64,000 bases of DNA from Patescibacteria group bacterium (GCA_041674765.1 JBAYVE010000001.1:2321-66320); one strand, 5' to 3'. Shown: positions 22,101 to 42,771, counted from the first letter of the stretch. Notes: generated by a model from the sequence alone, not told the origin. Translations and numbers: made by a program.

Positions 22101-24717
22101 CTTGAGAATAATCTTTACTTTGAGCCTCGCTTGAATCCTGAGTTTTATATTGGATCCGGAAATTTACGGTCTGACTGAGCGCACAAATACTTTGTTGTCG
22201 CTTCTTTTCAATCTCGTCACTGATCTCAATATTTCCGGCATCTGTGTGAATCGTAATATTAATCTGTTCGGCCGGACGTTGGCAGGCATCTTTGGCAGTA
22301 ACTTTGGCTAAATTACCTCGAAGCCACTCTCTAAAGGTTAGATATCCCAAGTCGCCAGGATTGTATTCCACCTCCTGGCCATTTTCGATGGCAAATATCT
22401 TATCAATAGTTTCACCTTCGTTTAGGAACTTTGTACTGTCTAGATGAGTGGAATCATCTCCGAGCCGCCGTGCCAGCGTGTAGATGCCGATAGTTTGGTA
22501 GGCACTTCTACTGCCGGAAATAGCTTGTTCCCAAGTGCCGTCCGGTAGTTGATAGGCGCTATTCGTCATGGCGAAGTATTTCAAGCCGAAACTCGTGTCG
22601 TGCTTACGGGATTCCCCGACTATGTTGGCATATTCGGCCGCAGTGAAGGGCTTTGCGTGATCATTTGGATTGTGACCGTTCGTAAAAAGCGAAGTTGTCC
22701 CTGGCTGAATATGCAGGAGGTTATCAATATAGCCTGCATTGTTGCGGAAGATCTGAGTGCGGACAGAATTTAAGCTATCGTCTAAATCATTGAAAGACGT
22801 TGCATCCGTAGGCCAACTTTCCTTTGGCAAGTTTAACTTTGCTTCGATAATCTTGGCGCCGACGAGTGTCGCAAACATCGTACCGTCATTTAGATTATCA
22901 AGATCGCCGGCACGAAGATTCATCTCTGCTTCAACTTTGCGCTGTCCAATATTTTCCAGCAAACCGAAAAGATTATTCTTGACTTCCTTTCCGGCCTGGA
23001 AGTCATTATCAAGGGAACCAAAGGGAAGACCAAGCCTTTTTTCGATTGCAGATCTACCAATGACGTATTTGAGCGCTGTCAGGTCTGTAATATCGGTATC
23101 TGTCAGTATTTCTCTTGGAAGACCTAAATAGTCAGCCAGATAAACGCCTCCCAAATTTTTCAGAGTGTCCTCGACATCGCTACCATGAATAGAGTTTGTA
23201 GGCGAGTTAATGATATTAGCAAAGAGTGATTGGCCTAGAAGAGAAACAATATCATCCAAGCCGGCGCTTGAGAGATCGCCATCATAACTGCTAAATTGAG
23301 GATTCATGGCAGACAATAGATCGAGAGCGCTCTGAGATGCCATTTGTCTCATCGTCTCCATCAAATCCGTGCCAGTGTTTGTATTTGATCTCCGATAGCC
23401 ATCAGTTGTCTGCCATGCCAATTTGATCGGTTGGGCAGCCTGAGGTTCCTTGAAATCATGGCCGATCCTTCTTTTCTTTAGGACGGTGCAACGGACGTCG
23501 TCAATCTCGGTGATATCAACTGCCTGACCATTGTAGTGTGCAGAGATATTTCTGCTATTCTTCAGTGCCGGATCACTGTCCTCGAGAATCTCAGCGTTTT
23601 TCAAATCTTCATAATAAGCGTCATATTCCTGACCGTCTTTATCCTCGATTGTAAAACTATTGGCTTTTGCCCCGCATTCCGCGGCACTTTCATCTAAAGA
23701 GCAGACAACGTTTGAGTTGGTAATAGAACCGTTCAATTGTTCTCGTATCACATCTGACTCATTTGAATCGGTGTCGTTCTGGAGGATTCTGTTGGCCTTA
23801 ATTCTCCAATGACCTCCTCCTCCCTGGTCTTTTGGTGTGATTAAGTAAATCAGCGTCTTCAAAACTCTGATATCGATAGTCGGGGCCGAGATAGCATCAG
23901 AAATCAAATCGGCGACATATTCCTTATTGTTGTCACTTAATAGCTTGCCTTGGAGAGTATTGCTATCGATACCGGTGATGCACGAGAGAGTATTAAAATT
24001 GGCAAGATTTGTTTTGCCGGTTGCTTTAATTCGAGCCGCCTCCTCTTCCCAAAGGCCTTTCAACTTTTTATCACCGAAGTTTTTTTCCGCGAGAGAAACC
24101 AGATCCCTGAATTGCTGATGGTTGGAGATAGTCTCCGTCGCAGTAATACCGGTACCGTTTTGAAGCCAGGTTAGATATTGGAATTCATCTAGATATCTAG
24201 GACTCTCCTTGGTCTTTTCGGTATTTACCTGGTCATAAATCTTGTTCCGATTATCTGCAGGCAAAATTGCAAAAAGATTGAACAAGTCGTTATTGAAATC
24301 AGGCATAATATCGCTCATGCATTTGAGCTTTTTGAGAGATTCGATATCTTTCTTAGCTAAAACTAATCTTGCGTCAGAGGACGGTCCGAAAATGTCGTCC
24401 ACGGATAAAAGACTATCAGGATTGGTATAATAACTAATCAATTCCGCGAGCTGCTGATAGGCCTCTGACTGACCGAATTTTTTACAAACTTCTGAGTTAT
24501 TAGTTTCGGGCAGAGTGAACGTGAAATTTTGCTGAATGGTTATTGAATTAAGTCTGATCAGATCCGGTCTGTTCTGGGCAATATAGTCAGAAGAATCCAA
24601 ACTATCGATTTCGGTTGAAGGGATATCTGCAGCCTGTGCCCAGCTTAATAGAAAAGGATTTAGTATAATGACGACAGAGATAACTGCAAATAATAACTTT
24701 TGAAAGAATATCTTCAT
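16174..24717 (-). CDS. Giant (2847 aa) secreted surface protein, membrane-anchored by C-terminal TM helices; last gene of the T4SS-like operon; function unknown
   Basis: Single uninterrupted ORF. Signal peptide MKIFFQKLLFAVISVVIILNPFLLSWAQA. Recurrent motif (I/L)E(A/E)KLGLP at least 8 times. SAHYNGQAVDI motif (M15-peptidase-like SxHxxGxAxD). Coiled-coil segment. Hydrophobic helices SLMVLVSTAAYASIAIAAHAIAGAWIIPMV...ITLLTFLAINLF about 215 aa from the C-terminus. ATG overlaps the upstream gene stop (ATGA). Confidence 0.7.
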   Translation of the reverse strand: MKIFFQKLLFAVISVVIILNPFLLSWAQAADIPSTEIDSLDSSDYIAQNRPDLIRLNSITIQQNFTFTLPETNNSEVCKKFGQSEAYQQLAELISYYTNPDSLLSVDDIFGPSSDARLVLAKKDIESLKKLKCMSDIMPDFNNDLFNLFAILPADNRNKIYDQVNTEKTKESPRYLDEFQYLTWLQNGTGITATETISNHQQFRDLVSLAEKNFGDKKLKGLWEEEAARIKATGKTNLANFNTLSCITGIDSNTLQGKLLSDNNKEYVADLISDAISAPTIDIRVLKTLIYLITPKDQGGGGHWRIKANRILQNDTDSNESDVIREQLNGSITNSNVVCSLDESAAECGAKANSFTIEDKDGQEYDAYYEDLKNAEILEDSDPALKNSRNISAHYNGQAVDITEIDDVRCTVLKKRRIGHDFKEPQAAQPIKLAWQTTDGYRRSNTNTGTDLMETMRQMASQSALDLLSAMNPQFSSYDGDLSSAGLDDIVSLLGQSLFANIINSPTNSIHGSDVEDTLKNLGGVYLADYLGLPREILTDTDITDLTALKYVIGRSAIEKRLGLPFGSLDNDFQAGKEVKNNLFGLLENIGQRKVEAEMNLRAGDLDNLNDGTMFATLVGAKIIEAKLNLPKESWPTDATSFNDLDDSLNSVRTQIFRNNAGYIDNLLHIQPGTTSLFTNGHNPNDHAKPFTAAEYANIVGESRKHDTSFGLKYFAMTNSAYQLPDGTWEQAISGSRSAYQTIGIYTLARRLGDDSTHLDSTKFLNEGETIDKIFAIENGQEVEYNPGDLGYLTFREWLRGNLAKVTAKDACQRPAEQINITIHTDAGNIEISDEIEKKRQQSICALSQTVNFRIQYKTQDSSEAQSKDYSQDFNIPKTKAKTAGLEDFDLFLMMGYANANAENVFERIGSKLLYYGLANKLLDDEDKTKIDLLNLDPELSTNNKELGFYLARVLKVYELQSKINSEWEALKSDDVEIREISDKVEKTMSSLRDLLKNDSDLSKLQGIINSASVIATDLADLQKNLLALKQVYEMKKTSEYDEKAARVNILITDVNELIRAISEIMAGKEIPSDLLTINQIKPGLDSTQNTDSGDGRRKSKKLTTFQIAKIIFNFIAGKIGVSDLFVTLGANTAEAKLGLPSNSLIYFVENFEKRGVTGQDAFMQAIGQARIEEHYNMPFFYFQGASISKTPPDFKKDFEALMRWAGPEILSAYFGDTVKLSKFDEFFKRLSQTRERLTVDYFRKLKKDNPDQFKKFVDAATTRWKQDFQSKLKDQNGLLTKENDLDDIVENISNRKFGDNIRTPENDLLFRMGLPMGSYEALKSGNSGIWSEANSTAEKADKNFDVLKGSTKSLFTEEKTLTSASLTNKQKNLIEASILKISKNALEKYIQMLNGELLPSEADEYGSDRLVDYINANPYADDNKESSCKVIYTQKEGFSVNETTLQNNSFCYYDKEGRHCFESREEAQNYANNHKEQQIISILYEISYGLSRAFPGWDFEIFHSNLENFVNDPSMQYAFGEANTSNIVINEIYRSTGLPITLLEKLFVRNHLKNSVANYKQLVGEKEAAKIFTYKLFDNLPFSVDPDLFDAGDMFDLLNGDYSSAGRIASGYLDQEMELKTGTTYLIYTALTTDARDCAFAQAGGTFLGGLFGLDYVPIKGKTIDSFISNIGQAKIEETLGIPRGTFHGDDIEEIIRNVKPINFAAAFKIPFLWALKDEGKMSRIMGEQYALIKNSDISYQLLRLQKYVQGTPMLSNDAFDALSELQNELTINITDALTILPSTTDSNDITQNARVSAYIRFIAQLDNTFSLKAGGTYQLLYGKITPSEYIEEAGNSLIKNRILDVSVDRLCGIFDLSVEQEEGAKKTVTALRAIFTAPTFSISGESSNPDYKNYALLFDGLTNLFKYKLADKLSIPQTTILSIIENPDTAYSTMMGVIAAKLDEQADLNSTSQASFSGIYKALLPTDVKSADDQCRATYADEQLRLALIKSGAEKEISKTVVGSDEYENAVADRDDAVLQINALNAQETECKITARRSIAQKQDIDKGTIPKNEVLADRARLWLQNAAIEQLHKKIANLTIGGVFIGVDVPTADLKDLFGRDSNRAISVITMALTSNYAIKKIDGVDTKTPIPAEFFITYEMIRNSIYGLSTKSAQKLAAYKDATGNSANPEVTEYAPGAPECAKTGGNDFAKGIDCLGQVDAFKSPVESVQATVERQYDYTPEKYEQAKVDLQTQINRENTSIKNSCTDRYEQQHKINSCIQDEQAIRVEPLERKLNTLNDPSRANAADVQDVNGSAKNRAIEILEYRALDIGLWKLDTNIYPGFAEAIIKGNGEIKTAAIVKYVKRGVTNGHLFGVKFDAVKNVQEWGDILVYASSMIQGNNMAALETLIKVNNGQSFQYFANYMAKGFEKIFRFSITPDMAKGILVGLSTNDWGINSFSFEGIQGNANQTIGGASVPTLGQAIVNWGVGRVFNWADRALGVSEGTSFRLAKSGIDAYKANQALRSAQKSLQTATENVQEAQRLYDEAVNAGMAGQVQRFQTNLENAQAAETVEQIKVDNAKALRAAAFQIIVQMTIDYLVEKYLGETISGWEEDLNLVPGSLMVLVSTAAYASIAIAAHAIAGAWIIPMVDPVTIAITLLTFLAINLFSTYRVEYWCSVDGYYPYKDSSPPSSFWDKLSGRSSGNQNINLSGDPLSLLDTPVNNFTIPSSAMQKNDISGIGVFGGNAAHSSALNKTLEKKKILAAQYKARRLIGDVLSIQYDSKYNDSTGEALIPTQIMTGRSEDVTFWNDMVSTNICQQRLGKDALAVNGICLGFDSEGKAKTKEGLWANTQTTVWTHVGF

Positions 24718-26120
24718 TTTAGCGATAAAGCATACTTAATACGGGACCACAAATAATCGCCCCAATCCTTCGATTCGTTTTGATTATGGTCGATTTTATC
24801 TACTTCTGTGGTTGTTAGACAGACATTGCAGTAGCTCATTTCAATATGAAGCTGCGAATAATTGCCAATTTTTACTGTTTTTCCGATCGGCTTATTTAAG
24901 TCAGTAATCTTTTGTCCTTTTACTACAGAGGGATCAAAATTTGCGTACAAGAGGAGATAGTCACCGTTTTGGATAGCTATCTTCTTATGGCCCGTCCCAT
25001 CATCAGAAACATCAATGACCTCGCCGATCATACCGGGGTAGACGTTGTTACCTTCGGTGGTATACAAATCGACGCCGTCACATTTATTTTGGCCGAAGTA
25101 AATATAAGTTCCGTGACCCAGATCATCGCTCGGTGTAGTCGGTCGGAGTGGTGTTCCGGTGTGAAGTTCACTGTTTGTGCCGATGATTTTGGCCTTTTCA
25201 ATCGGATAATGTCCATTGATAGCAGGAATGCTATTATCTATTTTTTGTAGAACATTTTTTATAGCATCAAAAATTTCCTGACCTAACTCGACATTACCGG
25301 CAGCCGCTTGATTGACCTTTGTGAGAGCGCTATCGATCTCATTCTTGATATTTTGATCTGTCGTCTCCTCCTTTAGCTGAGTTAGTAAGAGCTGTAATTT
25401 TGTCGTTAGCTCTTTCTTTGATTGCTTTTGGATTTCAGGGTCTTTGACTGCGAGGAGTGTAGCCTCAATAACTGATTTATTATCAATCGGCATGGCGGGA
25501 GTAGTGGGAGTTTGGCCGCCGGCCCCACTCTTATAAAATCTAAGGGAGAAAGCCAGCATGCCGATGGCCATAGCCAGTATTACGACGACTAAAATGATAC
25601 TCCAGCTTCCGCCGAGGAGTCCGGCTATCCAGGCCCAGATTCTAACAATTGCAGCTACAAATCTTTTTGTTACTTTTTCTTCGAATTTTTGTTTTAAATC
25701 ATCAGCTATTCTTCTTGCTTTTCCGGCTCTAGCGTTTTGTTGATTAGTGTCTTCTCTAGAAGCATTTGGTTCTTGTCCTTGTTCAGGACCATTTTGGATG
25801 TTAGCCGCTCCCGTCTTTCGGGCGGTTCCCCCCTGATTGGCATATGGATCGGTTTTATCATCGCCAGGAAGAATCTGATCTGGAGAGATCTCGGGGTTGT
25901 CGGGTACCCTTTGCGGTAAAGGGGGCGGCTGTGATTCTTGTTCCCAAATCGGATCGTCAATCTCGCGGTTTAGAAAAGGATCGTCTTGAGCGCCAGGAAC
26001 TCCTTTGCCCTGATTGCGCAGACGTAAATATGAATCTCTAGCGCCCTCCGACTGAGACTTCATGTAGTCTTGTCGGTATTTGCGCATCTGTTTTTTGATA
26101 GATTGTAGTCTTTTATCCAA
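24714..26120 (-). CDS. Membrane-anchored protein with C-terminal M23/LytM-like peptidase domain (possibly degenerate)
   Basis: Basic cytoplasmic N-terminus; TM (WIAGLLGGSWSIILVVVILAMAIGML); C-terminal ...GTNSELHTGTP...VVKGQKITDLNKPIGKTVKIGNYSQLHIEM resembles the M23 core (…VKKGQ.V..GQ.IG..G.TG.STGPHLHFE). Confidence 0.45.
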   Translation of the reverse strand: MDKRLQSIKKQMRKYRQDYMKSQSEGARDSYLRLRNQGKGVPGAQDDPFLNREIDDPIWEQESQPPPLPQRVPDNPEISPDQILPGDDKTDPYANQGGTARKTGAANIQNGPEQGQEPNASREDTNQQNARAGKARRIADDLKQKFEEKVTKRFVAAIVRIWAWIAGLLGGSWSIILVVVILAMAIGMLAFSLRFYKSGAGGQTPTTPAMPIDNKSVIEATLLAVKDPEIQKQSKKELTTKLQLLLTQLKEETTDQNIKNEIDSALTKVNQAAAGNVELGQEIFDAIKNVLQKIDNSIPAINGHYPIEKAKIIGTNSELHTGTPLRPTTPSDDLGHGTYIYFGQNKCDGVDLYTTEGNNVYPGMIGEVIDVSDDGTGHKKIAIQNGDYLLLYANFDPSVVKGQKITDLNKPIGKTVKIGNYSQLHIEMSYCNVCLTTTEVDKIDHNQNESKDWGDYLWSRIKYALSLK

Positions 26121-27479: not shown

Positions 27480-28691
27480 CTACCAGCGTCCTATGCCGCA
27501 ATTAGCACACTGTAAGTCTTTTAACGTGCGATGATGTTGAATCCTTATCTCATCATCACCGACATTTCCTTCGATTGTGACTAAATCAACTGGAGTGACA
27601 ACAAAGCCTACATGGTAACCGCTGTCGCTTGCCCTACTTGGTACCATGAAGACGTCTCCTGCCTGTATTTCTGATAAGCTTTTCGGCTTAAACCAAGTGT
27701 GATTTTTTATGAAATAATCGCGTAAATTCAGAGTTCTACCGATTTTTGCAACCTCAGGGTCATTGTATACTTGAGCCAAAATCCATGAGACAAAGTATGT
27801 GCACCATTGAGCACAGCCTTTGCCTGGAACATATTTAACGCAGTTTGCGCCTCCGGTCTTATAACCTTTTTTCCCGGCAGCCAATTCGTCTGTAGCCAAC
27901 TTAACTATCTCATTTCCTGTCTGATTGCCTACCGTTAGTTGGCCGTTGATTGTGCATCCTTCAGCTAACTCTGTAAAAGTTTTTCCGACGTCTTGCAGAT
28001 AATCAAGTGCAATCTGTGCCCCACGGATTGCAGTAATACCTTGTTTGGACCAAAGGGGATATATCTTTGACCCATAATTACTCTGATCTTGATATTCTTT
28101 AATCTTGTCTGCGGACATAGGATAGCCATCTGCAACCCAAAGCTTTGCCACATTTGCCCCGCGATTATAAGCCAAAGCTACTGCTTGAATAGCATGAACA
28201 TCGGAAAAATTTGTAATACCAAGACTCTCTGCCTTATTCTTAATTATTTTAGCTGCCGGCCCAACTGATTTTGCAAAGTCTTTAGCGTCTTCTTTGGAAA
28301 GTCCGTATGCTTCTCTGCTGGCGCTATCCAGTTGGAATGGTCCGCAACCGTTTACTACGCAGGCAAAGTCTGATCCCATTGGTTTCCATTGCCTACCATT
28401 TTCCTTCCAGTAAATTGCTGCAAGCATCGCCGGATGAATGCCGGCTTCTTTTGCAGCCTGTGTCATCAGGGTCTGCTCCGATATGCCCACTTTTGCCCAA
28501 GTGTTACAGGAGACATCGCCGGATGAATAATTACTAGCTGCAGGATCGCCCTGTGCCTTCATTATATTCATGAATCCAGCACCGCCGACAGCGGCAGCTA
28601 CGATGGTGCCGCCAAGAATAAGTATGCTTGAAAAAATCAGCGGTCCGACCAGAACTGCGGCTTTATATTTTTTTAAAAATATCAATTTCAT
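27480..28691 (-). CDS. Bifunctional peptidoglycan hydrolase: lytic transglycosylase (SLT)-like domain plus C-terminal CHAP domain; VirB1-equivalent of Gram-positive T4SS (TraG/PrgK-like architecture)
   Basis: N-terminal TM; LAAIYWKENGRQWKPMGSDFACVVNGCGPFQL (SLT-like catalytic Glu region); C-terminal CAQWCTYFVSWILAQV...GDVFMV...GYHVGFVV...TIEGNVGDDEI (CHAP Cys/His). Confidence 0.6.
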   Translation of the reverse strand: MKLIFLKKYKAAVLVGPLIFSSILILGGTIVAAAVGGAGFMNIMKAQGDPAASNYSSGDVSCNTWAKVGISEQTLMTQAAKEAGIHPAMLAAIYWKENGRQWKPMGSDFACVVNGCGPFQLDSASREAYGLSKEDAKDFAKSVGPAAKIIKNKAESLGITNFSDVHAIQAVALAYNRGANVAKLWVADGYPMSADKIKEYQDQSNYGSKIYPLWSKQGITAIRGAQIALDYLQDVGKTFTELAEGCTINGQLTVGNQTGNEIVKLATDELAAGKKGYKTGGANCVKYVPGKGCAQWCTYFVSWILAQVYNDPEVAKIGRTLNLRDYFIKNHTWFKPKSLSEIQAGDVFMVPSRASDSGYHVGFVVTPVDLVTIEGNVGDDEIRIQHHRTLKDLQCANCGIGRW

Positions 28692-28695
28692 TCAT

Positions 28696-30516
28696 TTATT
28701 GTTGTCCTAGTATTTGTTTGGGGTCGGTAGTGATAATTTGATCTTCCGTGTACGAAGCTACTGCTTTGAAAGCAACGTGATTTAATCCTGCAAAGAAAAG
28801 ACCCTCTCCGACGTCTGACTCCAAAAGTAAATACTTTTCACCTTCAGTCAGGTTAAAAGTCTCAGCCACAAGGTCAACAGAAGCTGTTGATTGCTTCATC
28901 AATACCTGCATCGAGGAGTTGGCGACCACGGCCTTTCCATAACGGCTGGACAGAAAATCTTCTACATCCTGACTTATTATCGTCAATCCCAGATAGTATT
29001 TTCTGGCTCTTTTGGCCAAACCGTGAAGGAATTTCGCCGAGTCCTCGTATTGCATCATCCACCAAGCTTCATCGACGATCATCAGGCGCTTTTTCATCTC
29101 CATCCGAACTTTGGTCCAGATATAATCAAGAACAGTGTAAATGGCGATTGGCCGAAGCTGTTCATCCAGATCCCGGACAGAGAAAACAACAAATCCGGGT
29201 TTCAAGGTAAAATTCGTTCGTTGATTGTAAAGATTGGCAAAAGTGCCCTCGGTAAATTTCGACAGCCTGGCACGCAGAGACTCCGTGCCCTGTAGATTTG
29301 AGAGAATGTTGTAAAAATCTTGGAGTAGGGGAGGCTCGTTCTTCTGACTCTCAGGGTCAAAGGTAATATCCTTTAGGGCATATGTTTCAAAGAGCGCTTT
29401 GTCCACCACAGCATCTTCTTCCGGCGAAAGTCCGCCAACCATCAGATTTATCAACCCATGCAAAGAGGAGATGTTTGACCGCAACACATCTTCGCCCGAT
29501 TCTTTATCATTGGTCGGTAGATCAAAAGGGTTGATTCTTTTATCAGAATTCAAGGAAATATTTAGATAGCTACCATTGACGGCGTCACTCAGCGTCTTGT
29601 ATTCGTTTTCAGGATCTATCACGATGACGTCAGCTCCCAGCATCAGATAACGGATTGCTTCCAATTTGACGAAATAAGATTTACCTGAGCCTGATTTGGC
29701 GAACACAACGGAATTGGCATTCTCCAAATGAAAACGGTCAAAGATGATCAGCGAATTGTTGTGCCGGTTGATACCGTATAGGACGCCTTCATCCTGAGTC
29801 AATTCTGAGGAGGTAAAGGGGAAAGTCGACGAGAGAGAACCGGTATCCAAATTCCGCAAAACATTTACCTTGTCGGTGAATAAAGGCAGTGTCGCTTGAA
29901 AACCTTGCTCCATCTGGAAAACTGTTTCCTTCGTGTAGATAAGAAGACCTCCCAGGGTGGATTCCAGCTGATCACAGAGCGTCCGTAATTCCTCTTGAGA
30001 CCTGGCATATAAAGTAAAGTAGAGGCCGAATTGGAAGAGCCGAACCTCGCCTCTTTGAAGAACGTCTCGGAGGGATTCTACATCGCCCAGAGCAGTCTCC
30101 ATCTCAGGATCCCGAGGCTTACCCTTTTCATGATCGATTGACATTGTAGATTCGAGTTTACCAACCTGGGTTTTGAGCTGATACATCACCTCCTTGGATT
30201 CCAAAGGGTGAATGTACATCCCAATGTCCATGTTCATGTCATAGTTGATTACAGGAGAAAGCCAGTTCGTCTCCAAATATCGAGGGTAAGTAAAAACAAA
30301 GAGAGTTTTGATATAAAAGGATCCCACTTGAATATAGTTTGGGGTAACCACATAAGAAGCAGGCGCAATAATATCCCGGATCGATGCCACTCCCTGGCTT
30401 GGCACGTCCTTCTTTTCCTTGGTATCGCGAACATAAGCAACTTCGCGCTCGGAAATATTATTCTGGGCTAGTTGACGTGCATCTACATTTTTAGTTGTTT
30501 GGTCTAAATCAGCCAT
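28696..30516 (-). CDS. virB4: VirB4/TrbE/CagE-family T4SS ATPase (606 aa from ATG 30516; the longer ORF-track version to 30732 is an out-of-frame artefact)
   Basis: Walker A FAKSGSGKSYF; Walker B RLMIVDEAWWMM; VirB4-type middle region YVVTPNYIQVGSFYIKTLFVFTYPRYLETNWLSPVI; GGAG SD 14 nt upstream of ATG 30516; 8-nt overlap (ATGGCTGA) with the upstream gene. Confidence 0.85.
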   Translation of the reverse strand: MADLDQTTKNVDARQLAQNNISEREVAYVRDTKEKKDVPSQGVASIRDIIAPASYVVTPNYIQVGSFYIKTLFVFTYPRYLETNWLSPVINYDMNMDIGMYIHPLESKEVMYQLKTQVGKLESTMSIDHEKGKPRDPEMETALGDVESLRDVLQRGEVRLFQFGLYFTLYARSQEELRTLCDQLESTLGGLLIYTKETVFQMEQGFQATLPLFTDKVNVLRNLDTGSLSSTFPFTSSELTQDEGVLYGINRHNNSLIIFDRFHLENANSVVFAKSGSGKSYFVKLEAIRYLMLGADVIVIDPENEYKTLSDAVNGSYLNISLNSDKRINPFDLPTNDKESGEDVLRSNISSLHGLINLMVGGLSPEEDAVVDKALFETYALKDITFDPESQKNEPPLLQDFYNILSNLQGTESLRARLSKFTEGTFANLYNQRTNFTLKPGFVVFSVRDLDEQLRPIAIYTVLDYIWTKVRMEMKKRLMIVDEAWWMMQYEDSAKFLHGLAKRARKYYLGLTIISQDVEDFLSSRYGKAVVANSSMQVLMKQSTASVDLVAETFNLTEGEKYLLLESDVGEGLFFAGLNHVAFKAVASYTEDQIITTDPKQILGQQ

Positions 30517-31495
30517 TTGATGGTTCTGTCTCCTGTTTAGTTTCCTCTTGGCCCTTTTCGTCATCTGCGACCGGCACGGCCGGTCCTGTTTTCCCGGGAG
30601 TTGGACTGTCCGGGGTATCTTTGGTTTGTGAGCTCGAAGTTTGTCCGTTGCTACTTTTGCTTGACTCGGCTTGAGCCGCTTCTGCCTTGAGTCTCTCTTC
30701 CTGTTCAATCTTTCGCTGTGCCAAAACAACATTGGAATTGTCGATCATATCTAATTCTTCCTGGCTTTTTTTGCCGTCATTTTCAGTCTCTGCAGCATCA
30801 GCTACTTTCATTTTCTTCTTAGTCTCGCTCGCAGCGATAATAATGGGGGAGGCGAGTGAAACAGCATCTTCAATTCGCTCCTTTGAAGCTTCATCAGGAT
30901 TGTAGACCTGATAAAACAATTCTATTAACTGTTCAGTCGATAATTGGAAGCAGTGAAGGCCCATGCTTCCCAAGCCTTGGGCTACTATTGCGCCCCTTTC
31001 CATTATTTTTTTTGCATTGGTCTCAAATTCCTGGTCTGTAATTTTGATATGGTCGTAAATGGTCGCTTTTTTCGGTTTAAATAACTTATCAAATAAACCT
31101 GATTGTTGAATTGCCATCGGCTGGTAGGAGACAACAACGTAAAAATTCTTTTTCATTATGTTGGCCATCGTAATCAGTTCGCCAATGAAGTCTATGTAGT
31201 CGTCGGTCTGTGCCTTCAAGAGTTCGTTCCCCTGGCTTTTGGCTATATCGGTCAGTTTCTTCAGGTATGGCGCCAAGTCGAGCTGTTTTGATCTGATAAT
31301 TATTTCGATTGGGAAATGGAGTGAGTTGAGAAAACCCTGATATTGAAAAACAATCGAATTTTGTTCAGCCTCGCTTTTTAGGTTAAAATTGGCGGCTGCG
31401 ACCTGTAAGACTATCCGGTAGGAACCGTCTTTTAGGATGATAATGCCGTCTTTTATTCCGGCGATATCGATAGCTTGTTGAGTGGAAAACACCAT
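30509..31495 (-). CDS. VirB4 N-terminal-domain-like protein with about 110-aa acidic/Ser/Gln-rich disordered tail; encoded separately from and translationally coupled to the VirB4 ATPase
   Basis: LKDGSYRIVLQVAAANFNLKSEAEQNSIVFQYQGFLNSLHFPIEIIIRSK parallels the extreme N-terminus of A. tumefaciens VirB4 (LEDGSIMSIARIDGVAFELEE...FNTLLRNIADDHVSIYAHLVRH; from memory); tail ...ETENDGKKSQEELDM...AEAAQAESSKSSNGQTSSSQTKDTPDSPTPGKTG...DDEKGQEETKQETEPSNG. Confidence 0.5.
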   Translation of the reverse strand: MVFSTQQAIDIAGIKDGIIILKDGSYRIVLQVAAANFNLKSEAEQNSIVFQYQGFLNSLHFPIEIIIRSKQLDLAPYLKKLTDIAKSQGNELLKAQTDDYIDFIGELITMANIMKKNFYVVVSYQPMAIQQSGLFDKLFKPKKATIYDHIKITDQEFETNAKKIMERGAIVAQGLGSMGLHCFQLSTEQLIELFYQVYNPDEASKERIEDAVSLASPIIIAASETKKKMKVADAAETENDGKKSQEELDMIDNSNVVLAQRKIEQEERLKAEAAQAESSKSSNGQTSSSQTKDTPDSPTPGKTGPAVPVADDEKGQEETKQETEPSNG

Positions 31496-31518
31496 AATAT
31501 AAACTTTAAAATAATTTG

Positions 31519-31932
31519 TTATTGTTTAATCAGAACTTTTCCCGTGTCATACTTCTTCGCTATATTGCTTATTTCATCATGACTGACATTCTTGTGCTGA
31601 ACCGTCGTTCCTTTCTTCTCGACATGATATATTTCTATCCTCAGATCGGAATCATCACCTTGGTGCCAGACCCTTTTTTTCGGTTGGGATACATAGGCAA
31701 TAGCGGCTTTAAAGAAATCCAAGAAAGGGCGCTCATTGATCTTGATGAAATCCAAGCAGATGACAAATACCGCAATCGGTGTGATCAAAATATAGGAAAA
31801 CGGCTTGGGGATAGCAGAATAAATGGCATATGAACAGCCAAAGCCAATTACGGCATAGATAAACTGAACCATTGTTAATGGCCCGAGGACTCGATCTTTC
31901 ATATCGATATTTTGCGGAACTTTATACCTCAA
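31519..31932 (-). CDS. Small two-TM membrane protein, VirB3/PrgI-like (position and topology)
   Basis: 137 aa; MKDRVLGPLTMVQFIYAVIGFGCSYAIYSAIPKPFSYILITPIAVFVICLDFI hairpin; lies immediately upstream of the VirB4-N gene, as VirB3 does in T4SS loci. Confidence 0.4.
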   Translation of the reverse strand: MRYKVPQNIDMKDRVLGPLTMVQFIYAVIGFGCSYAIYSAIPKPFSYILITPIAVFVICLDFIKINERPFLDFFKAAIAYVSQPKKRVWHQGDDSDLRIEIYHVEKKGTTVQHKNVSHDEISNIAKKYDTGKVLIKQ

Positions 31933-32022: not shown

Positions 32023-32943
32023 TCAAGGATGGATGATAGGAGAAGGTTTTGCTGCCTGTGCTGCAAACTGGTTTTTCCGAATTAGAGGCTTGCCGGCTCT
32101 TTCTAATTCACTTGAAGTGATTAGCGTTGAATAAAAATAAAGCATGGCTGATCGTTCACGAATATAATTTTCAGCTTCTTCATAATTATCGGTTTTAAGG
32201 CCATGCGCTGTAAGATAAATTTTAGTGTCTGCAATTTCCTCGGCGTTGACGATATAAATCAATGCTTCCTCGCAATTGACCTCTTCTTTGAGCTTTTCTA
32301 TATCGAGTTCGAGTCTGTTTGTGAGGCGGTAGAAATCGACAACTTTGGGATAGATTTCTTTGAGCTGGGGGATAGTAATGGGATATTCAATATAATTATG
32401 CATCACAAGCAAAATTTCTTTTGCTAAAGCGCTGATTTTCTTTAAGGTCTCAGGGTTTTCTTCCCCCGATCCTTTATAAAGTCGGGCGAAGTTATCGACT
32501 TGAGGCTTAACAGCGAGATAGCAAAGGTTTTCATAGCCATTCTTAATCTGTCTGCATCGGACAACAATTTCCTGCCAAGACTTGACCTGCTGACTTATGA
32601 CATATTTCTCATTTAGCCGAAATGTGCCCTGAAATAGCTTGGCAAGAGTAATATTTATATCATTCAGACTCCCATCTTTCATTCCAGCTATCGCAAAAAT
32701 AATCCGTTTGCGATCATCATCGATTGCTATTGATCCGCATGTCTCAGCCAGGAGACATGCCAGTATTATTTTGTGGCGTGCAATTTCTCGAAGTAGGCAA
32801 TTTTCAAAAAAGAGATACCAAAAATTTATATAATCAGGTCTCGGCAATGCCGTTACAAATGTTTTTACTTCCTCAAAACTATGAGTTTCCAGGTAGAAGG
32901 CGTAGTTTTTTGCGTCAGTGATATCTTTTTCGGTTTCGATCAT
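32023..32943 (-). CDS. Hypothetical cytoplasmic protein (306 aa) within the T4SS-like operon
   Basis: Long ORF with no TM segments or recognisable motifs; tight operon spacing. Confidence 0.5.
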   Translation of the reverse strand: MIETEKDITDAKNYAFYLETHSFEEVKTFVTALPRPDYINFWYLFFENCLLREIARHKIILACLLAETCGSIAIDDDRKRIIFAIAGMKDGSLNDINITLAKLFQGTFRLNEKYVISQQVKSWQEIVVRCRQIKNGYENLCYLAVKPQVDNFARLYKGSGEENPETLKKISALAKEILLVMHNYIEYPITIPQLKEIYPKVVDFYRLTNRLELDIEKLKEEVNCEEALIYIVNAEEIADTKIYLTAHGLKTDNYEEAENYIRERSAMLYFYSTLITSSELERAGKPLIRKNQFAAQAAKPSPIIHP

Positions 32944-32958
32944 ACAAATTTCTTTTTA

Positions 32959-35733
32959 TTACTTCAAGAACCTGGCTGGAATCTCGACGCCAGGATATTT
33001 TCGTCGGAATTCGTCAACGCCAAGAAAGCTGACCAGGTCATCAATTTTATCGCCAATTTTGACTTTCTTTCCGTTTATTTCAATTGTCTCCGTCGCATCC
33101 AACCCAGAGGCATTATCGAGTTCCTTGCCGCCTTCACGGGAAACAGGAGCGTACTGCAGCTTGGCCTCTGCATCAAAACCTTGCCGATATTGTCCGCCAG
33201 GACCGCGGATATCAGCATTTATAACGGCCTGATTCATTTTGCCGAGGACATCAAGCCCCTGAGTATATTCGGCGCTAGTGACATTTTCACCAGCGGCTTT
33301 TCGAAGGTCTACTTTTAAGGTATTTTTAGTTGAATCCCATACAAAGGTGGCAGCACTTTCGAGTTCGGATTTCTGGACTTTTGTCAGGTCTGCTGCCTTT
33401 CTCACAGCAGCCTCTCGTAGATGGACTTGGAAACCAGAGGCGTCAGTTTCGTCAGCCAGAAATTCGTCAATTTTGGCAGATTTCTCTGCGTCGGTAAGGG
33501 CTTTGAACCCAGCATCTACTTCTCCATAACTTGACATCGCATCTTTTTTAATGGCGATAAATTGGCCGCCGTTCATAACAGTTTCGAGACCTCTTTCATG
33601 CTTTTGGGCTAGTTTATCCCTTACAACCACAGCACCGGCGGCGTCCTCAGTATCACTAGCCGCTTCTAATTCCGCGCTTGTAAACATGTCATGGATGTTT
33701 GACCATGTCGAAGTTTGGGAACTAACCCCTTGAAGAGAATTTTTTATCTCCGAGAAGATTTTCCAATACTCTTTACCGTTGAGATCTCCTGCTCTATTTG
33801 TAACCATTTTCATAAACCAATCTCTCATCTCACCTGTTGCCAAACGAGCCGACTCTTCGGAGATGCGTTTTTCCGTTGTCGAGCCATATTCCTCTTTGTT
33901 TATAGCAGAGAGCTCTTTCATCGTTCTGTCGCGAAGTAGTCCTTTAATTGCCTCGGGCTCGCCATCTGTCAGAGAGCCAGCTTTTGAAATATCTTCACTG
34001 ATAACGTTGCCGTTCTCATCCATTGGAACTATACCTTGCAATGATATTCGGCCTAGTCCTATAAATTTGTTGTTATTTTTATCAAAGTATCTAGAGTCTG
34101 ATTTCAATGAATCCAGTTGGGCGGCATAGCTCAATTCAGCAATCTTTAGCTCCTTTTCAGCAATCACCCTCTGATCTTCTAGCTTTTTCCTTACTACCGG
34201 ATCGGTAACGTCCGGATCTGCAAGCATGGCTTCGACTTTCTCAATTGTATCGCTGTGCTTACGGAAGGATTCGACTACTTCATTTAATTTATATGCGTTC
34301 GCCTTGACCTCTCGGCGGTTATCACTGTCTGATTTTCCACCAAGCCTTTCGTATGGCTGAGCCATCCTAACTGCTTGCAACAAGTCCTCCCAGACTGCCC
34401 GGAATTGTTTATTATCATGAAAAGCAGGATCGCCTAAAGCGGCCATCCCCTTTGCCTTATTCTTGAAATTATTTAGATAAGTATCATCTGCCTCGACTCT
34501 CATCTCATACTGTCTGGTTCTTAAATACGCCTCTTTGCCTTCTGCGCCGCCTAGCTCATAGTATTTTCTCTTTAAGTTCTTGTCTTTCCAATCTTTTTCA
34601 CCATAGAGTGAATTGACGTTATCCATATACTGACCCCATTTGGCTTGGTCTTTGTCGCTCATATATCGGATGCCGCCTGTTTTACCACCAAACGCTTCTC
34701 GATAAAGCTGATCGTCCCAGCCTTCAGATTCTTTTTTATGCCAATCTCTGGCAGCTTGGACCCTTCTAGCACGTCTAACCCAAGCACCGATAGGATTTGC
34801 CAAAGCATTTGGACTCTTGCTACCAAAGCTCTTGAACCAGTTGCCGATCGTTGTCTTCTTATCTTCCACCATAGGATCGATCCACTTGGACTTGACCTTG
34901 CTACCAGCCCATTTGCCAGCTTTTTTGACGGTCAGATTGCCAAATTGATTCATCAGCGATCCACCGACCTTAAATGGGGCCATGATAGCCATTATGATCG
35001 TTGCTAGAGTCAGAATACGCATCATAAAGCTATTATCCGAAATATTGCCAAGCTGGAAACCGAGCCAAAGGATGGCGATGGAGATTACCGGCATAAATGT
35101 CCAGCGAAGCATGTAACTCCACCACTGATTAAATAAGCTTTTTGTTTGAGGAAGGATCATCGCCAGGAAAGCTAGGGGAGAAACCATTATCAATACGTAT
35201 ACGACCCAATTCCGAAAAAGGAAGAGAAAAGCCAAGACCAAGGCACCAATTCCAATGGCCAGAATAGTTATCGAGTTCAGGAATGCATCGAAACCTCCGT
35301 CGAAGTTGAATTGCGGCATCTCCAGACCCAATGAGTTATCGACAGCACTGGTATTCGTAAAGAAAGTCATTGCAACGCTGGAGGCATCGACAAGGATTCT
35401 TGAGATTAGGAAACTGAAATTCGCTGCGATGACAGCGAGCAGAAGAGTGGGGATCAATTTTTTGATCCCGTAAGTATTAGCATTTATCCGTAGTATCTCC
35501 ATAAAGGCGATAGCAACAAGAATAAGAATGAGTAGAGAATTGGCTGTAGTTAAAAGCATGCCCCAAACTTCGCGTATCACTGTCCCCGGTTGTCCACTTC
35601 CTGTTAGGACTTTACACATCGGTTCAACTGTTGACGCCTGCGCGGAATCAGGTAATAAGAAAAAAGCTAGTGGCGATAATACCAATAGTAAATTCAATAA
35701 TCTCCAAATTATCCTTTGCTTTGTCAGGTGCAC
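32959..35733 (-). CDS. VirB6/TrbL-like polytopic membrane protein (signal peptide, about 6-7 TM N-terminal half, about 500-aa hydrophilic C-terminal extension)
   Basis: MHLTKQRIIWRLLNLLLVLSPLAFFLLPDSAQAS then multiple hydrophobic helices (LLILILVAIAFMEIL, LIPTLLLAVIAANFSFLI, ILAIGIGALVLAFLFLF, VVYVLIMVSPLAFLAMIL, FMPVISIAILWLGFQL, ILTLATIIMAIMAPF), then a charged coiled C-terminal region. This architecture is typical of Gram-positive VirB6 analogues. Confidence 0.55.
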   Translation of the reverse strand: MHLTKQRIIWRLLNLLLVLSPLAFFLLPDSAQASTVEPMCKVLTGSGQPGTVIREVWGMLLTTANSLLILILVAIAFMEILRINANTYGIKKLIPTLLLAVIAANFSFLISRILVDASSVAMTFFTNTSAVDNSLGLEMPQFNFDGGFDAFLNSITILAIGIGALVLAFLFLFRNWVVYVLIMVSPLAFLAMILPQTKSLFNQWWSYMLRWTFMPVISIAILWLGFQLGNISDNSFMMRILTLATIIMAIMAPFKVGGSLMNQFGNLTVKKAGKWAGSKVKSKWIDPMVEDKKTTIGNWFKSFGSKSPNALANPIGAWVRRARRVQAARDWHKKESEGWDDQLYREAFGGKTGGIRYMSDKDQAKWGQYMDNVNSLYGEKDWKDKNLKRKYYELGGAEGKEAYLRTRQYEMRVEADDTYLNNFKNKAKGMAALGDPAFHDNKQFRAVWEDLLQAVRMAQPYERLGGKSDSDNRREVKANAYKLNEVVESFRKHSDTIEKVEAMLADPDVTDPVVRKKLEDQRVIAEKELKIAELSYAAQLDSLKSDSRYFDKNNNKFIGLGRISLQGIVPMDENGNVISEDISKAGSLTDGEPEAIKGLLRDRTMKELSAINKEEYGSTTEKRISEESARLATGEMRDWFMKMVTNRAGDLNGKEYWKIFSEIKNSLQGVSSQTSTWSNIHDMFTSAELEAASDTEDAAGAVVVRDKLAQKHERGLETVMNGGQFIAIKKDAMSSYGEVDAGFKALTDAEKSAKIDEFLADETDASGFQVHLREAAVRKAADLTKVQKSELESAATFVWDSTKNTLKVDLRKAAGENVTSAEYTQGLDVLGKMNQAVINADIRGPGGQYRQGFDAEAKLQYAPVSREGGKELDNASGLDATETIEINGKKVKIGDKIDDLVSFLGVDEFRRKYPGVEIPARFLK

Positions 35734-37718
35734 TTTCCTCCATATCCGATCGCATCGCGTAAAAGGCCGAGACCAAGGTTAGCCAGAGGCTCTAAAATAG
35801 TATTGTAAATCAACCTCAACACAATGCAGATTGAAAAGCTTATATATTCTAAAGGACTAAGCATAGATGCATTTGGCGAGATACAATCGCCTTTTGCTCC
35901 TTCTTGGATAGCAGCAGCGTTCCATTCATTGGCTAGGGTTTGATCAGCAAATCTTTGTGCCACAGCGTTCTTATCATCTAAGATTTCTTGAGTAAAGCCA
36001 AAGGCTTTTTTTGTCTCGTCTGTAATGTTTTCACTTCCCATTATACATTCGTGAAATTCAATATTTTTTTGAAGATAAAAAAGTCCTAATTCTGATTGGA
36101 AAACAGCGGTTAGATAATCTTCCTGGGTATTTTGAGCATAAGCCTTTATTCCCCAAAGAGCTATGCCTATTGTGATGATACCTATGAGGGCGTATATATT
36201 GGCTTTTCCAGGGCTCTTAGACCAAAATTTGTTTCCAGCTGCTTTGATTTTAGCAGCTGGCCGTGAGGCTGGTACTATTAACTCAGCCCCGGGTTTTGGG
36301 GCAGTAAGTGCAACATTTGCACCTTTTGAAGATGGCATAAGAATATTTGTCCCTGGGTGCGTTCTTTCAATTTGGGCAATAGCCTTTTCCGTAACAGCTG
36401 CTCCGGTAGTGGTAACTTCTGCAACTGACGCAGCAGCTCTAGCATCTTGCAAGCTTTTTAGTTTATTATACCCAACGAATGCGGCACCTACTTCACCAGC
36501 GCCGACAATGACTTCAGCGGCGCTTGTAAAATCCATATCAAATTGTCCTTCCGGGTACTCCTTGCCTTTATTCCATGGCATTGCTTTCCACCAATCAGAG
36601 TATTTGCTTCTAGCCTCTTCGCTGGTGAACATCTTTATGCCCTTTATTGCCAAGTCGTACTGCTTGTCTAAATAAGCGCCGTTCACAGAATGGATATCAG
36701 GATATTCTGATCCAGAGTTAGCATAAAAAGACGTATACATCGCCATGTCTATATCTGCGTTTTTATATTTAGAGCCGTCAAATTTTTGTTTTACTTCTGT
36801 ACCATTTATTTTGGCGATCTCAGAAGCGAATTCTTCGGCTACGCTCTTAATTGCATCCAAATTCTTCCAGCCGGTTTGCGATTCGGGCTTAACTATGAGG
36901 TTGCGGCATTGATCGACAGCTTCTTTCGGCATATTGCCCTGAATTAATTTTGGCTTTGTGCCACTTTTAAGATACTCGATAGTTTGTTTCAAATACCAAC
37001 CGAAGATCCAGTTAGTGTCGTTCGTGGCAGCCCAATGAAGGCCAATTTTTTCTTTCTCGTTATAGGGATTCTCATAGTAGAAATCCCAGTTCATTAATTT
37101 CCCGTTTGCATCCTTCGCGCATGCCATGAAGAGTGTAAAATCACCCGAATTATCTTTTTGGCACTCTTTCCATGCAAGAGCATCGATCACGGTTCCGTCT
37201 GGAATTTGAGGGTAGAAACCATACTCACCTGCAGGTTTCGAGGTGTCATTTCTTGTTGTTGGTCTGGTGATGAGGACTAAGGGATATTTACCGCTGCCAG
37301 CAGGGGCGCCGTTAACCTTTAACTCTTTTATGGATTCTGATAGATCGATTGTTTTGCCTTCACTAGTTACGGTATATCCGGTTATATATAACAGATCAAC
37401 ATCCCATGAACCATTATCGGCATTGTCATTTTCTACTGTCATATTTCGCCATCGAGTGCCACCGGTTCCATAGTTGGTGTAAGTGATCTTTGCTAGTTTT
37501 CTCTTGCCATCTTCTGTAAAATAGATTGAATGAACCACATTACCAGCGATATGTGTGCTGGTCCCATCTCCAATAGTTGCGTTGGTAGATGACCATGTAG
37601 CGGTTTTTTCCTCAAATTGGGGATTGGGCACCTCTGCGTGAGCAATGTCCGCGAAGATAGGTGAAAAGTAGCCTATCAAAAAAGAAAATAGTACTAGATA
37701 ACTTACAATTTTTTTCAT
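35724..37718 (-). CDS. Secreted protein (664 aa) with signal peptide and a single TM helix near residue 510; unknown function
   Basis: MKKIVSYLVLFSFLIGYFSPIFADIAHA signal; later IYALIGIITIGIALWGIKAYA TM; 10-nt overlap with the VirB6-like gene. Confidence 0.5.
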   Translation of the reverse strand: MKKIVSYLVLFSFLIGYFSPIFADIAHAEVPNPQFEEKTATWSSTNATIGDGTSTHIAGNVVHSIYFTEDGKRKLAKITYTNYGTGGTRWRNMTVENDNADNGSWDVDLLYITGYTVTSEGKTIDLSESIKELKVNGAPAGSGKYPLVLITRPTTRNDTSKPAGEYGFYPQIPDGTVIDALAWKECQKDNSGDFTLFMACAKDANGKLMNWDFYYENPYNEKEKIGLHWAATNDTNWIFGWYLKQTIEYLKSGTKPKLIQGNMPKEAVDQCRNLIVKPESQTGWKNLDAIKSVAEEFASEIAKINGTEVKQKFDGSKYKNADIDMAMYTSFYANSGSEYPDIHSVNGAYLDKQYDLAIKGIKMFTSEEARSKYSDWWKAMPWNKGKEYPEGQFDMDFTSAAEVIVGAGEVGAAFVGYNKLKSLQDARAAASVAEVTTTGAAVTEKAIAQIERTHPGTNILMPSSKGANVALTAPKPGAELIVPASRPAAKIKAAGNKFWSKSPGKANIYALIGIITIGIALWGIKAYAQNTQEDYLTAVFQSELGLFYLQKNIEFHECIMGSENITDETKKAFGFTQEILDDKNAVAQRFADQTLANEWNAAAIQEGAKGDCISPNASMLSPLEYISFSICIVLRLIYNTILEPLANLGLGLLRDAIGYGGKCT

Positions 37719-38477: not shown

Positions 38478-39272
38478 TTATCTCCTCAATAGATAAATGA
38501 GAATAATAAACAAAGCAAAAATTATGCGGTAGAATACAAATATTTTGAAATTGCTCTTTTTTAGGTAGTTCAGCAAGAATTTTATAGCGATGAAACCGAA
38601 AACAGTGGCAAACAAAACCGCAGTGAAGAATTCGAGATTAAGGTCAGAGCTCGTTAACTTTCTTGACTCATACAGAAAGGCACCGACTGTGGCAGGCGTT
38701 CCAATCAGAAAGGAAAAACGGGCAGCGTCCTCCCGTTTCAAACCGATCGAACGGGCAGCCACCATCGTGATACCCGAACGGGAAACACCGGGGATTAGGG
38801 CCAATGCCTGAGCTAATCCGATAAGAAAGGATTGCTTGAAGCCAATATCCTTGAAAGAGTTTGTAGATTTGGCATATTTATCTACCAGCCAGAGAACTAT
38901 GCCAAAAATCATCATAGTAAAAGCGATTATCAGTGGAGCCTGGAGCTTTGACTCAGTAATCTTTTCGAGAAATACTCCTGCAATCGCGGCCGGAATCGTT
39001 GCTAACACAATTTGCCAGAGCAGGGTCGAGGAAAACGCAGTGGTATTCTTTCCTGTAAAAGCAGATCGAAATATGCCCAGCCAATCCCGCCAGAAGAAGG
39101 CAAGCAAAGCGGCCACGGTGCCCATATGCAAGGCCGTATCAAATTTCAACCCTCCATGAACCCAATTGAAAAGATAGGGAACTCCCCAGAGATGTGCCGA
39201 TGATGATATTGGCAAAAACTCAGCCAAACCCTGAATAGTGCCCAAAATAATTGCTTGATATAAATATAGCAT
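38478..39272 (-). CDS. uppP: Undecaprenyl-diphosphatase UppP (BacA)
   Basis: IILGTIQGLAEFLPISSSAHL...GVSRSGITM... are canonical UppP motifs; first gene of the long minus-strand operon (1-nt gap to the next gene). Confidence 0.9.
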   Translation of the reverse strand: MLYLYQAIILGTIQGLAEFLPISSSAHLWGVPYLFNWVHGGLKFDTALHMGTVAALLAFFWRDWLGIFRSAFTGKNTTAFSSTLLWQIVLATIPAAIAGVFLEKITESKLQAPLIIAFTMMIFGIVLWLVDKYAKSTNSFKDIGFKQSFLIGLAQALALIPGVSRSGITMVAARSIGLKREDAARFSFLIGTPATVGAFLYESRKLTSSDLNLEFFTAVLFATVFGFIAIKFLLNYLKKSNFKIFVFYRIIFALFIILIYLLRR

Positions 39273-39366
39273 AAGGATATTTTAACAAACAAAGACAAAA
39301 ATACCAAGAAAAGGTGCAGAAGAGATACGCTTGTTGTTAGTGCCAGGTATCCGTTATAATCAATGC

Positions 39367-39921: not shown

Positions 39922-39982
39922 CAGGGGAGGAATTGGAAAGAAACACAATCTTTTAGAATTTAAGACTTACTACATATAACTT

Positions 39983-41032: not shown

Positions 41033-41035
41033 GGC

Positions 41036-41064
41036 TTGACAAATTATGGTCTATCTGATACAAT
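41036..41064 (+). promoter_or_regulatory. Near-consensus sigma70 promoter (TTGACA, 17 nt, TACAAT) followed by a perfect 7-bp inverted repeat ATTTACT-AAAA-AGTAAAT at 41071-41088
   Basis: Hexamers and spacer read directly; the palindrome sits at the predicted +1 to +18 (operator-like position). Confidence 0.4.
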
Positions 41065-41110
41065 CTCTTAATTTACTAAAAAGTAAATACTAATTAGATA
41101 GGCAGGCCAT

Positions 41111-41272: not shown

Positions 41273-41356
41273 AGCAAGAGATGTCTCTCTCGCATTAAAT
41301 TTTGCGCCGTTCTATCTACGATTATTTAGCGGTAATTTGATAGCTTTATAATTTGG

Positions 41357-42685: not shown

Positions 42686-42771
42686 ACAGATTTGTTTAAT
42701 GCTAAAGACTAAAATAAACGAAATAACGAAATTATCTTTTTAGTTGTTTGGTTTCTTTTAGTTTTTAGCGT

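Follow-up and report, generated by a model that had tools for sequence, protein, structure and literature searches.

We analysed a 64,000-nt stretch of DNA from a Patescibacteria group bacterium (GCA_041674765.1, JBAYVE010000001.1:2321-66320), hereafter "the window", a term that denotes this whole stretch rather than the feature under study; all positions are counted on its full length. The window holds a monoderm-type type IV secretion system (T4SS) locus of the Patescibacteria (candidate phyla radiation, CPR), in which a genuine VirB4 is very probably encoded by two genes. Three genes lie in succession on the minus strand: one for a PrgI/VirB3-like small membrane protein of 137 aa (31519-31932), an open reading frame (ORF) for a TrsD-like protein of 328 aa (30509-31495) that begins 23 bases 3' of the first, and one for an N-terminally shortened, TrsE-like VirB4 ATPase of 606 aa (28696-30516). 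A previous inspection of the DNA without database searches (the sequence-only reading) had left two options for the last two genes, namely a VirB4 made of two polypeptides, or a frameshifted or degenerating gene. Complementary profile coverage, collinearity with fused homologues and the split state of 75 of 76 related loci bear out the former; the latter is excluded by these split relatives, which occupy all three frames, and by 149 of 150 representative homologues being stand-alone proteins.

Several independent lines of evidence identify the 328-aa protein, among them profile matches to its TrsD-like or "TraC-like" domain, which spans residues 1-215 (30851-31495, minus strand) and is conserved over 120 homologues. 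Residues 6-129 align to positions 2-126 of the 752-position NCBIfam CD1110 VirB4 model (E-value 3.6e-5), and residues 14-202 align to positions 113-279 of the 894-position NCBIfam VirB4_plasma model (3e-7). On the same two models the 606-aa ATPase occupies positions 181-735 and 292-889, respectively, and the two ORFs together thus give complementary coverage of full-length monoderm VirB4 models. These matches show that the 328-aa protein resembles the N-terminus of VirB4 to a degree that exceeds chance. A precomputed annotation assigns the protein to Pfam PF26593 ("TraC-like"), a match that did not appear in the Pfam copy that we searched directly, and one member of the TrsD-like family matches Pfam TraC_F_IV (6.7e-4).

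The downstream gene is a clear VirB4 ATPase. Its product scores 361.1 bits (E-value 1.2e-107; cut-off 325) against the NCBIfam CD1110 family (conju_CD1110, NF045971), and is further matched by Pfam P-loop_TraG (3.1e-27), by the C-terminal domain of Thermoanaerobacter VirB4 (PDB 4AG5; residues 236-596, 1.2e-41) and, in BLASTP, by TrsE of plasmid pGO1 (8e-36). It carries Walker A (AKSGSGKS, 29677-29700, minus strand) and Walker B (LMIVDEAW, 29062-29085, minus strand), in agreement with the earlier claim that the VirB4 middle region and both Walker motifs reside in this gene. From these alignments, residues ~43-235 correspond to the second half of the VirB4 N-terminal domain (NTD) and residues ~236-596 to the RecA-like ATPase domain. 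The ATPase N-terminus (DARQLAQNN.SERE...IRDIIAP) fits the conserved leader of its orthologues, which supports the ATG at 30516 as the start. In the 328-aa protein, by comparison, the first ~200 residues of VirB4, or roughly the first half of its NTD, have a homologue that stands by itself. The NTD of R388 VirB4 comprises residues 15-400 (PMC9259494), and the ~200-residue TrsD-like piece plus ATPase residues ~43-235 add up to this domain size, which places the split within the canonical N-domain and not at the boundary between the N-domain and the ATPase. As the two NTD halves open with motifs that look alike (STQQAIDIAG... and ASIRDIIAP...), we also considered whether they arose by internal duplication, and rejected this when hhalign of two 70-sequence alignments returned a probability of 0.7%.

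Single-chain counterparts of the pair occur in nature and show the same order of parts. A tblastn search with residues 1-215 against plasmids returned 81 records, mostly from Firmicutes. Among these plasmids, Bacillus cereus pJ62_2 encodes VirB4 as one 830-aa ORF and the related pJ7_3 as two pieces of 210 and 617 aa that overlap by ATGA, the pieces being 57% and 60% identical to pJ62_2 residues 28-213 and 228-828, respectively. In BLASTP, the 328-aa protein of the window maps to pJ62_2 residues 28-235 (9e-13) and the ATPase to residues 240-817 (1.4e-74). A 70-sequence profile of the Patescibacteria domain likewise aligns to positions 25-207 of the 830 in hhalign (98.2% probability, E-value 4e-14). 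Within Patescibacteria, one fused locus was found among 80 related loci (L078, from BroJett034, 873 aa), on which the window pieces map to residues 13-229 (40% identity) and 298-873 (61%) with a 68-aa low-complexity linker between them; another fused Patescibacteria protein (P0243) is 898 aa long. These fused proteins have a low-complexity linker of about 70-110 aa where the window has a tail and a gene boundary. The VirB4 proteins of the CD1110 family, pJ62_2, L078 and P0243 thus hold both pieces in one ORF and in the same order as the window, and they differ from it in being one polypeptide without a stop/start junction. Each locus holds exactly one copy of the TrsD-like domain, either free or fused, and the two states are mutually exclusive.

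Comparison with orthologous loci, proposed earlier as a check, showed how general the split is. The 80 related loci were drawn from Berkelbacteria, CPR2, Kerfeld-, Uhr-, Andersen-, Falkow-, Peri- and Magasanikbacteria, and others; both parts are present in 76 of them, and 74 split loci could be analysed for the junction. The parts are split in 75 of the 76, hence relatives with one intact ORF are not the rule and the break is not private to this genome. Both frame and spacing vary: the relative frame of the ATPase is 0 in 17 loci, +1 in 24 and +2 in 33 (n = 74), and a simple start-codon heuristic sorted the junctions into 20 overlaps, 28 gaps of up to 27 nt, 16 gaps of 28-147 nt and 10 gaps of more than 147 nt. 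Stand-alone proteins also prevail in the wider family. There were 576 homologues of the 328-aa protein, and the best 120, all from Patescibacteria metagenome-assembled genomes, are 43-60% identical to it and 295-383 aa long. An exhaustive HMMER search of 1.84 billion representative proteins gave 2273 clusters at an E-value of 1e-3 or below, and the best 150 of these comprise 149 stand-alone proteins (97-478 aa) and a single fused one (898 aa).

These relatives weigh heavily against the suggestion that the locus is a former single virB4 broken by a frameshift mutation or by an assembly or sequencing indel, or one decaying as a pseudogene. In its favor, the ATPase frame, which is +1 relative to the 328-aa frame, is open from 30732 to 28696, that is, for 216 nt 5' of its ATG (30732-30517) and over the tail-coding region of the upstream gene, and a related low-coverage contig carries an in-frame stop within the domain. 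The open stretch, however, encodes a K/R-rich peptide of the kind expected from an alternative frame of A/G-rich tail DNA, and the ATPase N-terminus fits the orthologue leader. A private break is also hard to reconcile with 75 of 76 relatives being split in three frames with varied spacing, or with stand-alone family members of similar length at 43-60% identity. Moreover, two other assemblies contain identical DNA, namely an ENA contig that equals the window over 6,987 nt and a Logan contig (an assembly of SRR6484325) that equals it over 5,448 nt, albeit they may derive from the same reads. We therefore regard a broken gene as extremely improbable. The contig with the in-frame stop (L024, JAQVAO010000041, coverage 2.8x) has it at ~1939, in place of a conserved K/R of the TrsD-like domain (SR*LDL), and this stop is either a sequencing error or marks the sole pseudogene candidate among the 80 loci. 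In another locus (L067) the TrsD-like gene is followed after ~6654 by high-GC sequence without a VirB4 ATPase, and the contig may be chimeric.

A two-gene VirB4 also accounts better for the junction than does a programmed +1 frameshift or stop-codon bypass within 30509-30732, which would yield a fused VirB4 besides or instead of the two chains. The downstream +1 frame is indeed open over the last 72 codons of the 328-aa gene, and in five relatives (L002, L011, L027, L033 and L039) only a single in-frame stop separates the ORFs. On the other hand, most of the stops are TAA, a separate start codon for the ATPase is found close to the stop in each case, some gaps hold whole genes, and no conserved slippery or structured element was noticed, with no search aimed at one. 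As neither the frame relation (17/24/33) nor the spacing is conserved, programmed frameshifting is highly unlikely. The whole genes within gaps were seen in five loci, where an unrelated small gene sits exactly between the TrsD-like stop and the virB4 start: a DUF559 endonuclease-like gene in L007 (~7051-7463, 9e-32), genes for 23S_rRNA_IVP four-helix-bundle proteins in L028, L036 and L068, and a GIY-YIG gene in L058. Small, possibly mobile genes of such kinds are common across CPR genomes.

In the window itself, the start and stop codons of the pair overlap by 8 nt (ATGGCTGA, 30509-30516, minus strand), as the sequence-only reading had stated and as can be read directly: the ATPase ATG occupies 30516-30514 and the TGA of the 328-aa gene 30511-30509, the upstream frame ending in TCA AAT GGC TGA. 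The overlap is unchanged in the two other assemblies, and among the 20 overlapping junctions of the relatives four are of -8 and seven are of the ATGA type. Such an overlap is compatible with translational coupling, which had been proposed, although the family as a whole does not conserve it, given that 10 loci have gaps of more than 147 nt. The ATPase gene was also said to possess its own GGAG Shine-Dalgarno; a GGAG is present at 30530-30533 (minus strand), but its 13-nt spacer before the ATG is long for such a site. The presence of a VirB3-like gene directly upstream was confirmed, as the 137-aa product at 31519-31932 matches Pfam PrgI (PF12666; E-value 2.1e-13, 51 bits, cut-off 27), an annotation repeated on the ENA and Logan contigs. 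PrgI is the monoderm equivalent of VirB3. On verification, the other sequence-level statements of the sequence-only reading held as well.

Structure prediction points in the same direction as the profiles. In an AlphaFold2 model of the 328-aa protein, for which 30 homologues were used, residues 11-210 form a core of good confidence (predicted local distance difference test, pLDDT, mostly 75-95), and when it was searched against the PDB with Foldseek, the best 14 matches were all TrwK/VirB4 chains of R388 (7O41, 7O42, 7O43, 8RTB and 8RTD; probability 0.94-1.0, ~217 aligned columns). The fold predicted for the TrsD-like domain thus resembles that of the VirB4 N-terminal domain. TrwK, which has a homologous ATPase domain and gave the only significant fold matches to the TrsD-like model, is a diderm single chain of 823 aa, whereas the VirB4 of the window consists of two chains.

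Several points weigh against reading the pair as one VirB4. The Foldseek E-values are modest (3e-3 to 5e-2) and the root mean square deviations high (7-10 Å), and hhalign of the family against the sequence of proteobacterial TrwK was not significant, even though the best local match is collinear (residues 108-139 against TrwK 111-142). The likeness to the extreme VirB4 N-terminus noted from the sequence alone is upheld by the NCBIfam VirB4 profiles and not by direct similarity to TrwK; the comparison with A. tumefaciens VirB4 was a useful lead rather than a test. A PDB sequence search with the TrsD-like family profile returned only low-complexity noise. The NCBIfam TrsD/TraD model (NF041427) scores 15.5 bits (E-value 0.011, positions 21-95 of 201) against a cut-off of 200; this model represents the staphylococcal/enterococcal plasmid subfamily of TrsD/TraD, and a score below its cut-off makes the 328-aa protein a distant relative and not a member of that narrow subfamily. 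Translational coupling is not essential to the family either, because of the 10 loci with gaps above 147 nt, five of them with a gene in between. Lastly, that the two chains associate with each other, and the TrsD-like protein with PrgI, is an inference.

With these points in mind, we propose that the TrsD-like and ATPase chains may come together without a covalent link and so make up the counterpart of a single VirB4 protomer. In R388, VirB3 wraps the VirB4 NTD, and the NTDs form a dimer interface (PMC9259494). By analogy, the TrsD-like piece might supply the membrane-proximal surface that is wrapped by VirB3, here the PrgI-like protein, and the same surface might mediate contacts between VirB4 N-domains. 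The 8-nt overlap would favor coupled and roughly equimolar translation of the two chains in this genome. Alternatively, the TrsD-like protein may derive from VirB4 and yet act now as an independent accessory or regulatory T4SS factor, such as an adaptor, an assembly chaperone or a substoichiometric cap, and not as a constitutive structural half of each VirB4 protomer. Consistent with such a factor, the protein bears clade-specific disordered extensions at either end, its Firmicutes versions have an N-terminal hydrophobic segment that is absent here, other genes can separate it from virB4, and, as reported in PMC12102498, Gracilibacteria TrsD homologues are not associated with virB4. Unequal stoichiometry is also conceivable, as only 6 of the 12 VirB4 subunits of R388 bind VirB3 (PMC9259494). 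Nevertheless, it is precisely this region that is missing from every adjoining ATPase, and no second copy occurs in fused forms, which is the pattern predicted by complementation, and we consider an independent factor unlikely.

The long acidic disordered tail described by the sequence-only reading proved to be real in length and largely in disorder, but its acidity is mild and one helix within it is conserved. It comprises residues 216-328 (113 aa; 30512-30850, minus strand), is of low complexity and rich in E, S, K, A and T, and has a net charge of -8 (D+E 23, K+R 15). In the AlphaFold2 model, pLDDT falls below 50 at residues 216-246 and 284-325 and reaches about 85 in a helix at residues 254-282. 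This helix belongs to a conserved segment at residues 251-283 (30647-30745, minus strand), identified by its invariant columns as well as by the model, which opens with I251-D252-N253 ("IDN"), D252 and N253 being invariant in 30 sequences. Tails over 119 homologues have a median length of 121 aa and a median net charge of -6, and 98% are negative. Among the related loci, tails of 69-149 aa are restricted to the closest clade (L001-L035) plus L049, and in short-tail lineages the ORF ends 2-30 residues past the domain. A hidden Markov model (HMM) of the IDN motif matched all 33 intact long-tail loci of L001-L035, always inside the TrsD-like gene and mostly with significance (E-values down to 7e-16; only 4.9e-01 in L016), and found no significant match in L049 (149-aa tail, E-value 3.4) or in the short-tail loci. 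The possibility that short TrsD-like lineages carry the helix on the ATPase side was rejected, as the same HMM, run over all linker regions, hit long-tail TrsD-like genes only.

We infer that the tail is the equivalent of the inter-subdomain linker of fused Patescibacteria proteins, plus one conserved helix. More speculatively, the helix and its acidic disordered flanks might form a clade-specific docking or regulatory element that reversibly tethers the free N-terminal piece either to its ATPase or to some other component of the T4SS; we consider this unlikely, but if true, the split would let epibiotic bacteria control the assembly or stoichiometry of their secretion ATPase, e.g., by loading the VirB3-binding piece on a subset of VirB4 subunits. 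No description of a clade-specific IDN-helix tail was found in the passages of PMC12102498 retrieved by keyword, or by term search in a 2025 FEMS T4SS review. Disordered appendages of the TrsD-like family vary in position. In seven members (P0145, P0195, P0208, P0212, P0220, P0231 and P0266), Q/P/A/N-rich N-terminal extensions of 100-230 aa replace the C-terminal tail; that such extensions (domain start at residue 100-230) are PrgI/VirB3 fusions, which would have served as Rosetta-stone evidence, was considered and dismissed, as they are of low complexity and have no Pfam match. One extended TrsD-like protein (P0239) looks chimeric. On the other side of the split, the ATPases of one subclade (L020-L035) have a disordered, S/T/Q/N/P-rich N-terminal extension of 130-228 aa (e.g., L026 6888-7559; L033 6185-6868) with the conserved short motifs DFWQ(S/T) and F(K/Q)LPPQ, which precede the leader ...REAQK.FQEGMLTVRDIIAP, likewise conserved, and long low-complexity segments hence occur on both sides of the split.

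The plasmid prototype of a TrsD-TrsE pair is provided by the pGO1/pSK41 family of Staphylococcus aureus (MPF_FATA, pGO1 subclass). The gene order of pGO1 is that of the window, with trsC (VirB3-like), trsD (227 aa), the ATPase gene trsE (672 aa) and then the CHAP hydrolase gene trsG, except that trsF lies between trsE and trsG. On fused pJ62_2, TrsD maps to residues 39-199 (3e-14) and TrsE to residues 241-822, in the same manner as the window pieces. TrsD and the window protein share very low identity (pairwise E-value 1e-4 over 56 residues); in hhalign against the Patescibacteria profile, TrsD reaches a probability of 60-84% alone and 99.9% via a Firmicutes alignment. TrsD also lacks the 113-aa tail of the window protein, and pGO1 is a conjugative plasmid with a relaxase and a coupling protein, whereas the window holds a chromosomal CPR locus. 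The same trio context, with a shortened VirB4 beside the domain, was seen in 75 related loci, in pGO1, in pJ7_3 and in plasmids of Pontibacillus and Clostridioides difficile BI1. Stand-alone domains of Firmicutes (L085 3809-4777 in C. difficile BI1, L084 3821-4645 in Pontibacillus) begin with a hydrophobic, transmembrane-like segment, e.g., LIIVMLFFILFVIGLIGFAFYKI, which Patescibacteria TrsD-like proteins lack.

Pairs of TrsD and VirB4 from the same phylum-level group and in the same arrangement as the window have been described in Patescibacteria (PMC12102498, PMC10633639). According to Quinonero-Coronel et al. 2025 (PMC12102498), 2,272 TrsD homologues occur in 2,221 assemblies, 1,664 of them associated with virB4, and no other T4SS component is as abundant in Patescibacteria; in Southlakia epibionticum ML1, the TrsD copy beside virB4 appears in the list of essential genes. 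Wang et al. 2023 found the T4SS of S. epibionticum (SEML1_0006-0019) to be essential and most like Gram-positive conjugative systems (PMC10633639). A remote homology of TrsD to the VirB4 N-terminus is cited in PMC12102498, and we refer to it via that study only, because Guglielmini et al. 2014 (PMC4027160) do not use the word TrsD in their main text. An arrangement of a TrsD-like gene with a shortened virB4 is thus normal, conserved and already published in Patescibacteria and in some Gram-positive plasmids, and its novelty is low, as it is both published and the rule in the lineage; the clade-specific tail with its conserved helix is the only part that seems to be undescribed, as far as we could find. 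The passages of PMC12102498 retrieved by keyword treat TrsD as a component of unassigned function, whereas here it shows residue-level complementarity with the shortened VirB4; neither this complementarity nor fused and split pairs were found in those passages, and a term search of the 2025 FEMS review returned no mention of TrsD or of a split VirB4. At NCBI, the 328-aa protein is a hypothetical protein of "Patescibacteria group bacterium".

Fusions of VirB3 with VirB4 (e.g., on Campylobacter plasmids, as cited in PMC12102498) go in the opposite direction to the fission seen in the window. They show that gene boundaries near the VirB4 N-terminus shift readily in evolution and that VirB3 acts jointly with this part of VirB4; within Patescibacteria, no VirB3-VirB4 fusion was found by that study. 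Epibiotic growth of Patescibacteria is reported to depend on their T4SS as an essential system. The proposal gives TrsD a concrete, testable role, namely as the VirB3-binding half of the VirB4 N-domain. A TrsD-like piece plus a shortened VirB4 would equal one canonical VirB4, and both fused and split pairs of this kind are found in nature. In genome annotation, it would be a mistake to label split pairs of this kind as virB4 pseudogenes with a frameshift.

The neighboring genes include further putative T4SS components, which lie on the minus strand. Immediately 3' of the ATPase gene lies one for a 403-aa VirB1/TrsG-like cell-wall hydrolase (27480-28691) with weak matches to Pfam CHAP (2.4e-4) and SLT (5.5e-3), both below the gathering score; an equivalent gene comes after virB4 in pJ62_2 and pJ7_3, and after trsF in pGO1. 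Upstream of the PrgI-like gene, a 306-aa soluble protein without Pfam match (32023-32943) is encoded between the latter and a gene for a large polytopic membrane protein of 924 aa (32959-35733), which has multiple hydrophobic segments in translation and is a candidate VirB6-like protein with a Pfam TrbL/VirB6 match below cut-off (E-value 0.013). This is preceded by a gene for a 664-aa protein (35724-37718), likewise without Pfam match, which has a signal-like segment at its N-terminus and hydrophobic segments towards its C-terminus. Both the 306-aa and the 664-aa protein may be T4SS components specific to this lineage. The T4SS cluster is directly followed by a giant ORF of 2847 aa (16174-24717, minus strand), the start of which overlaps the stop of an M23-peptidase-like gene (24714-26120) by 4 nt. 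It had no Pfam match at an E-value of 1e-3 or below and no PDB sequence match at 0.01 or below, and its product may be a T4SS-associated surface protein or substrate. The flank at 38478-43758 holds housekeeping genes of the cell envelope, for BacA/UppP, a PAP2 phosphatase, a Mur ligase and a protein of the FemAB family, together with a tyrosine recombinase (39983-41032), and the setting of the cluster is chromosomal rather than an obvious mobile element.

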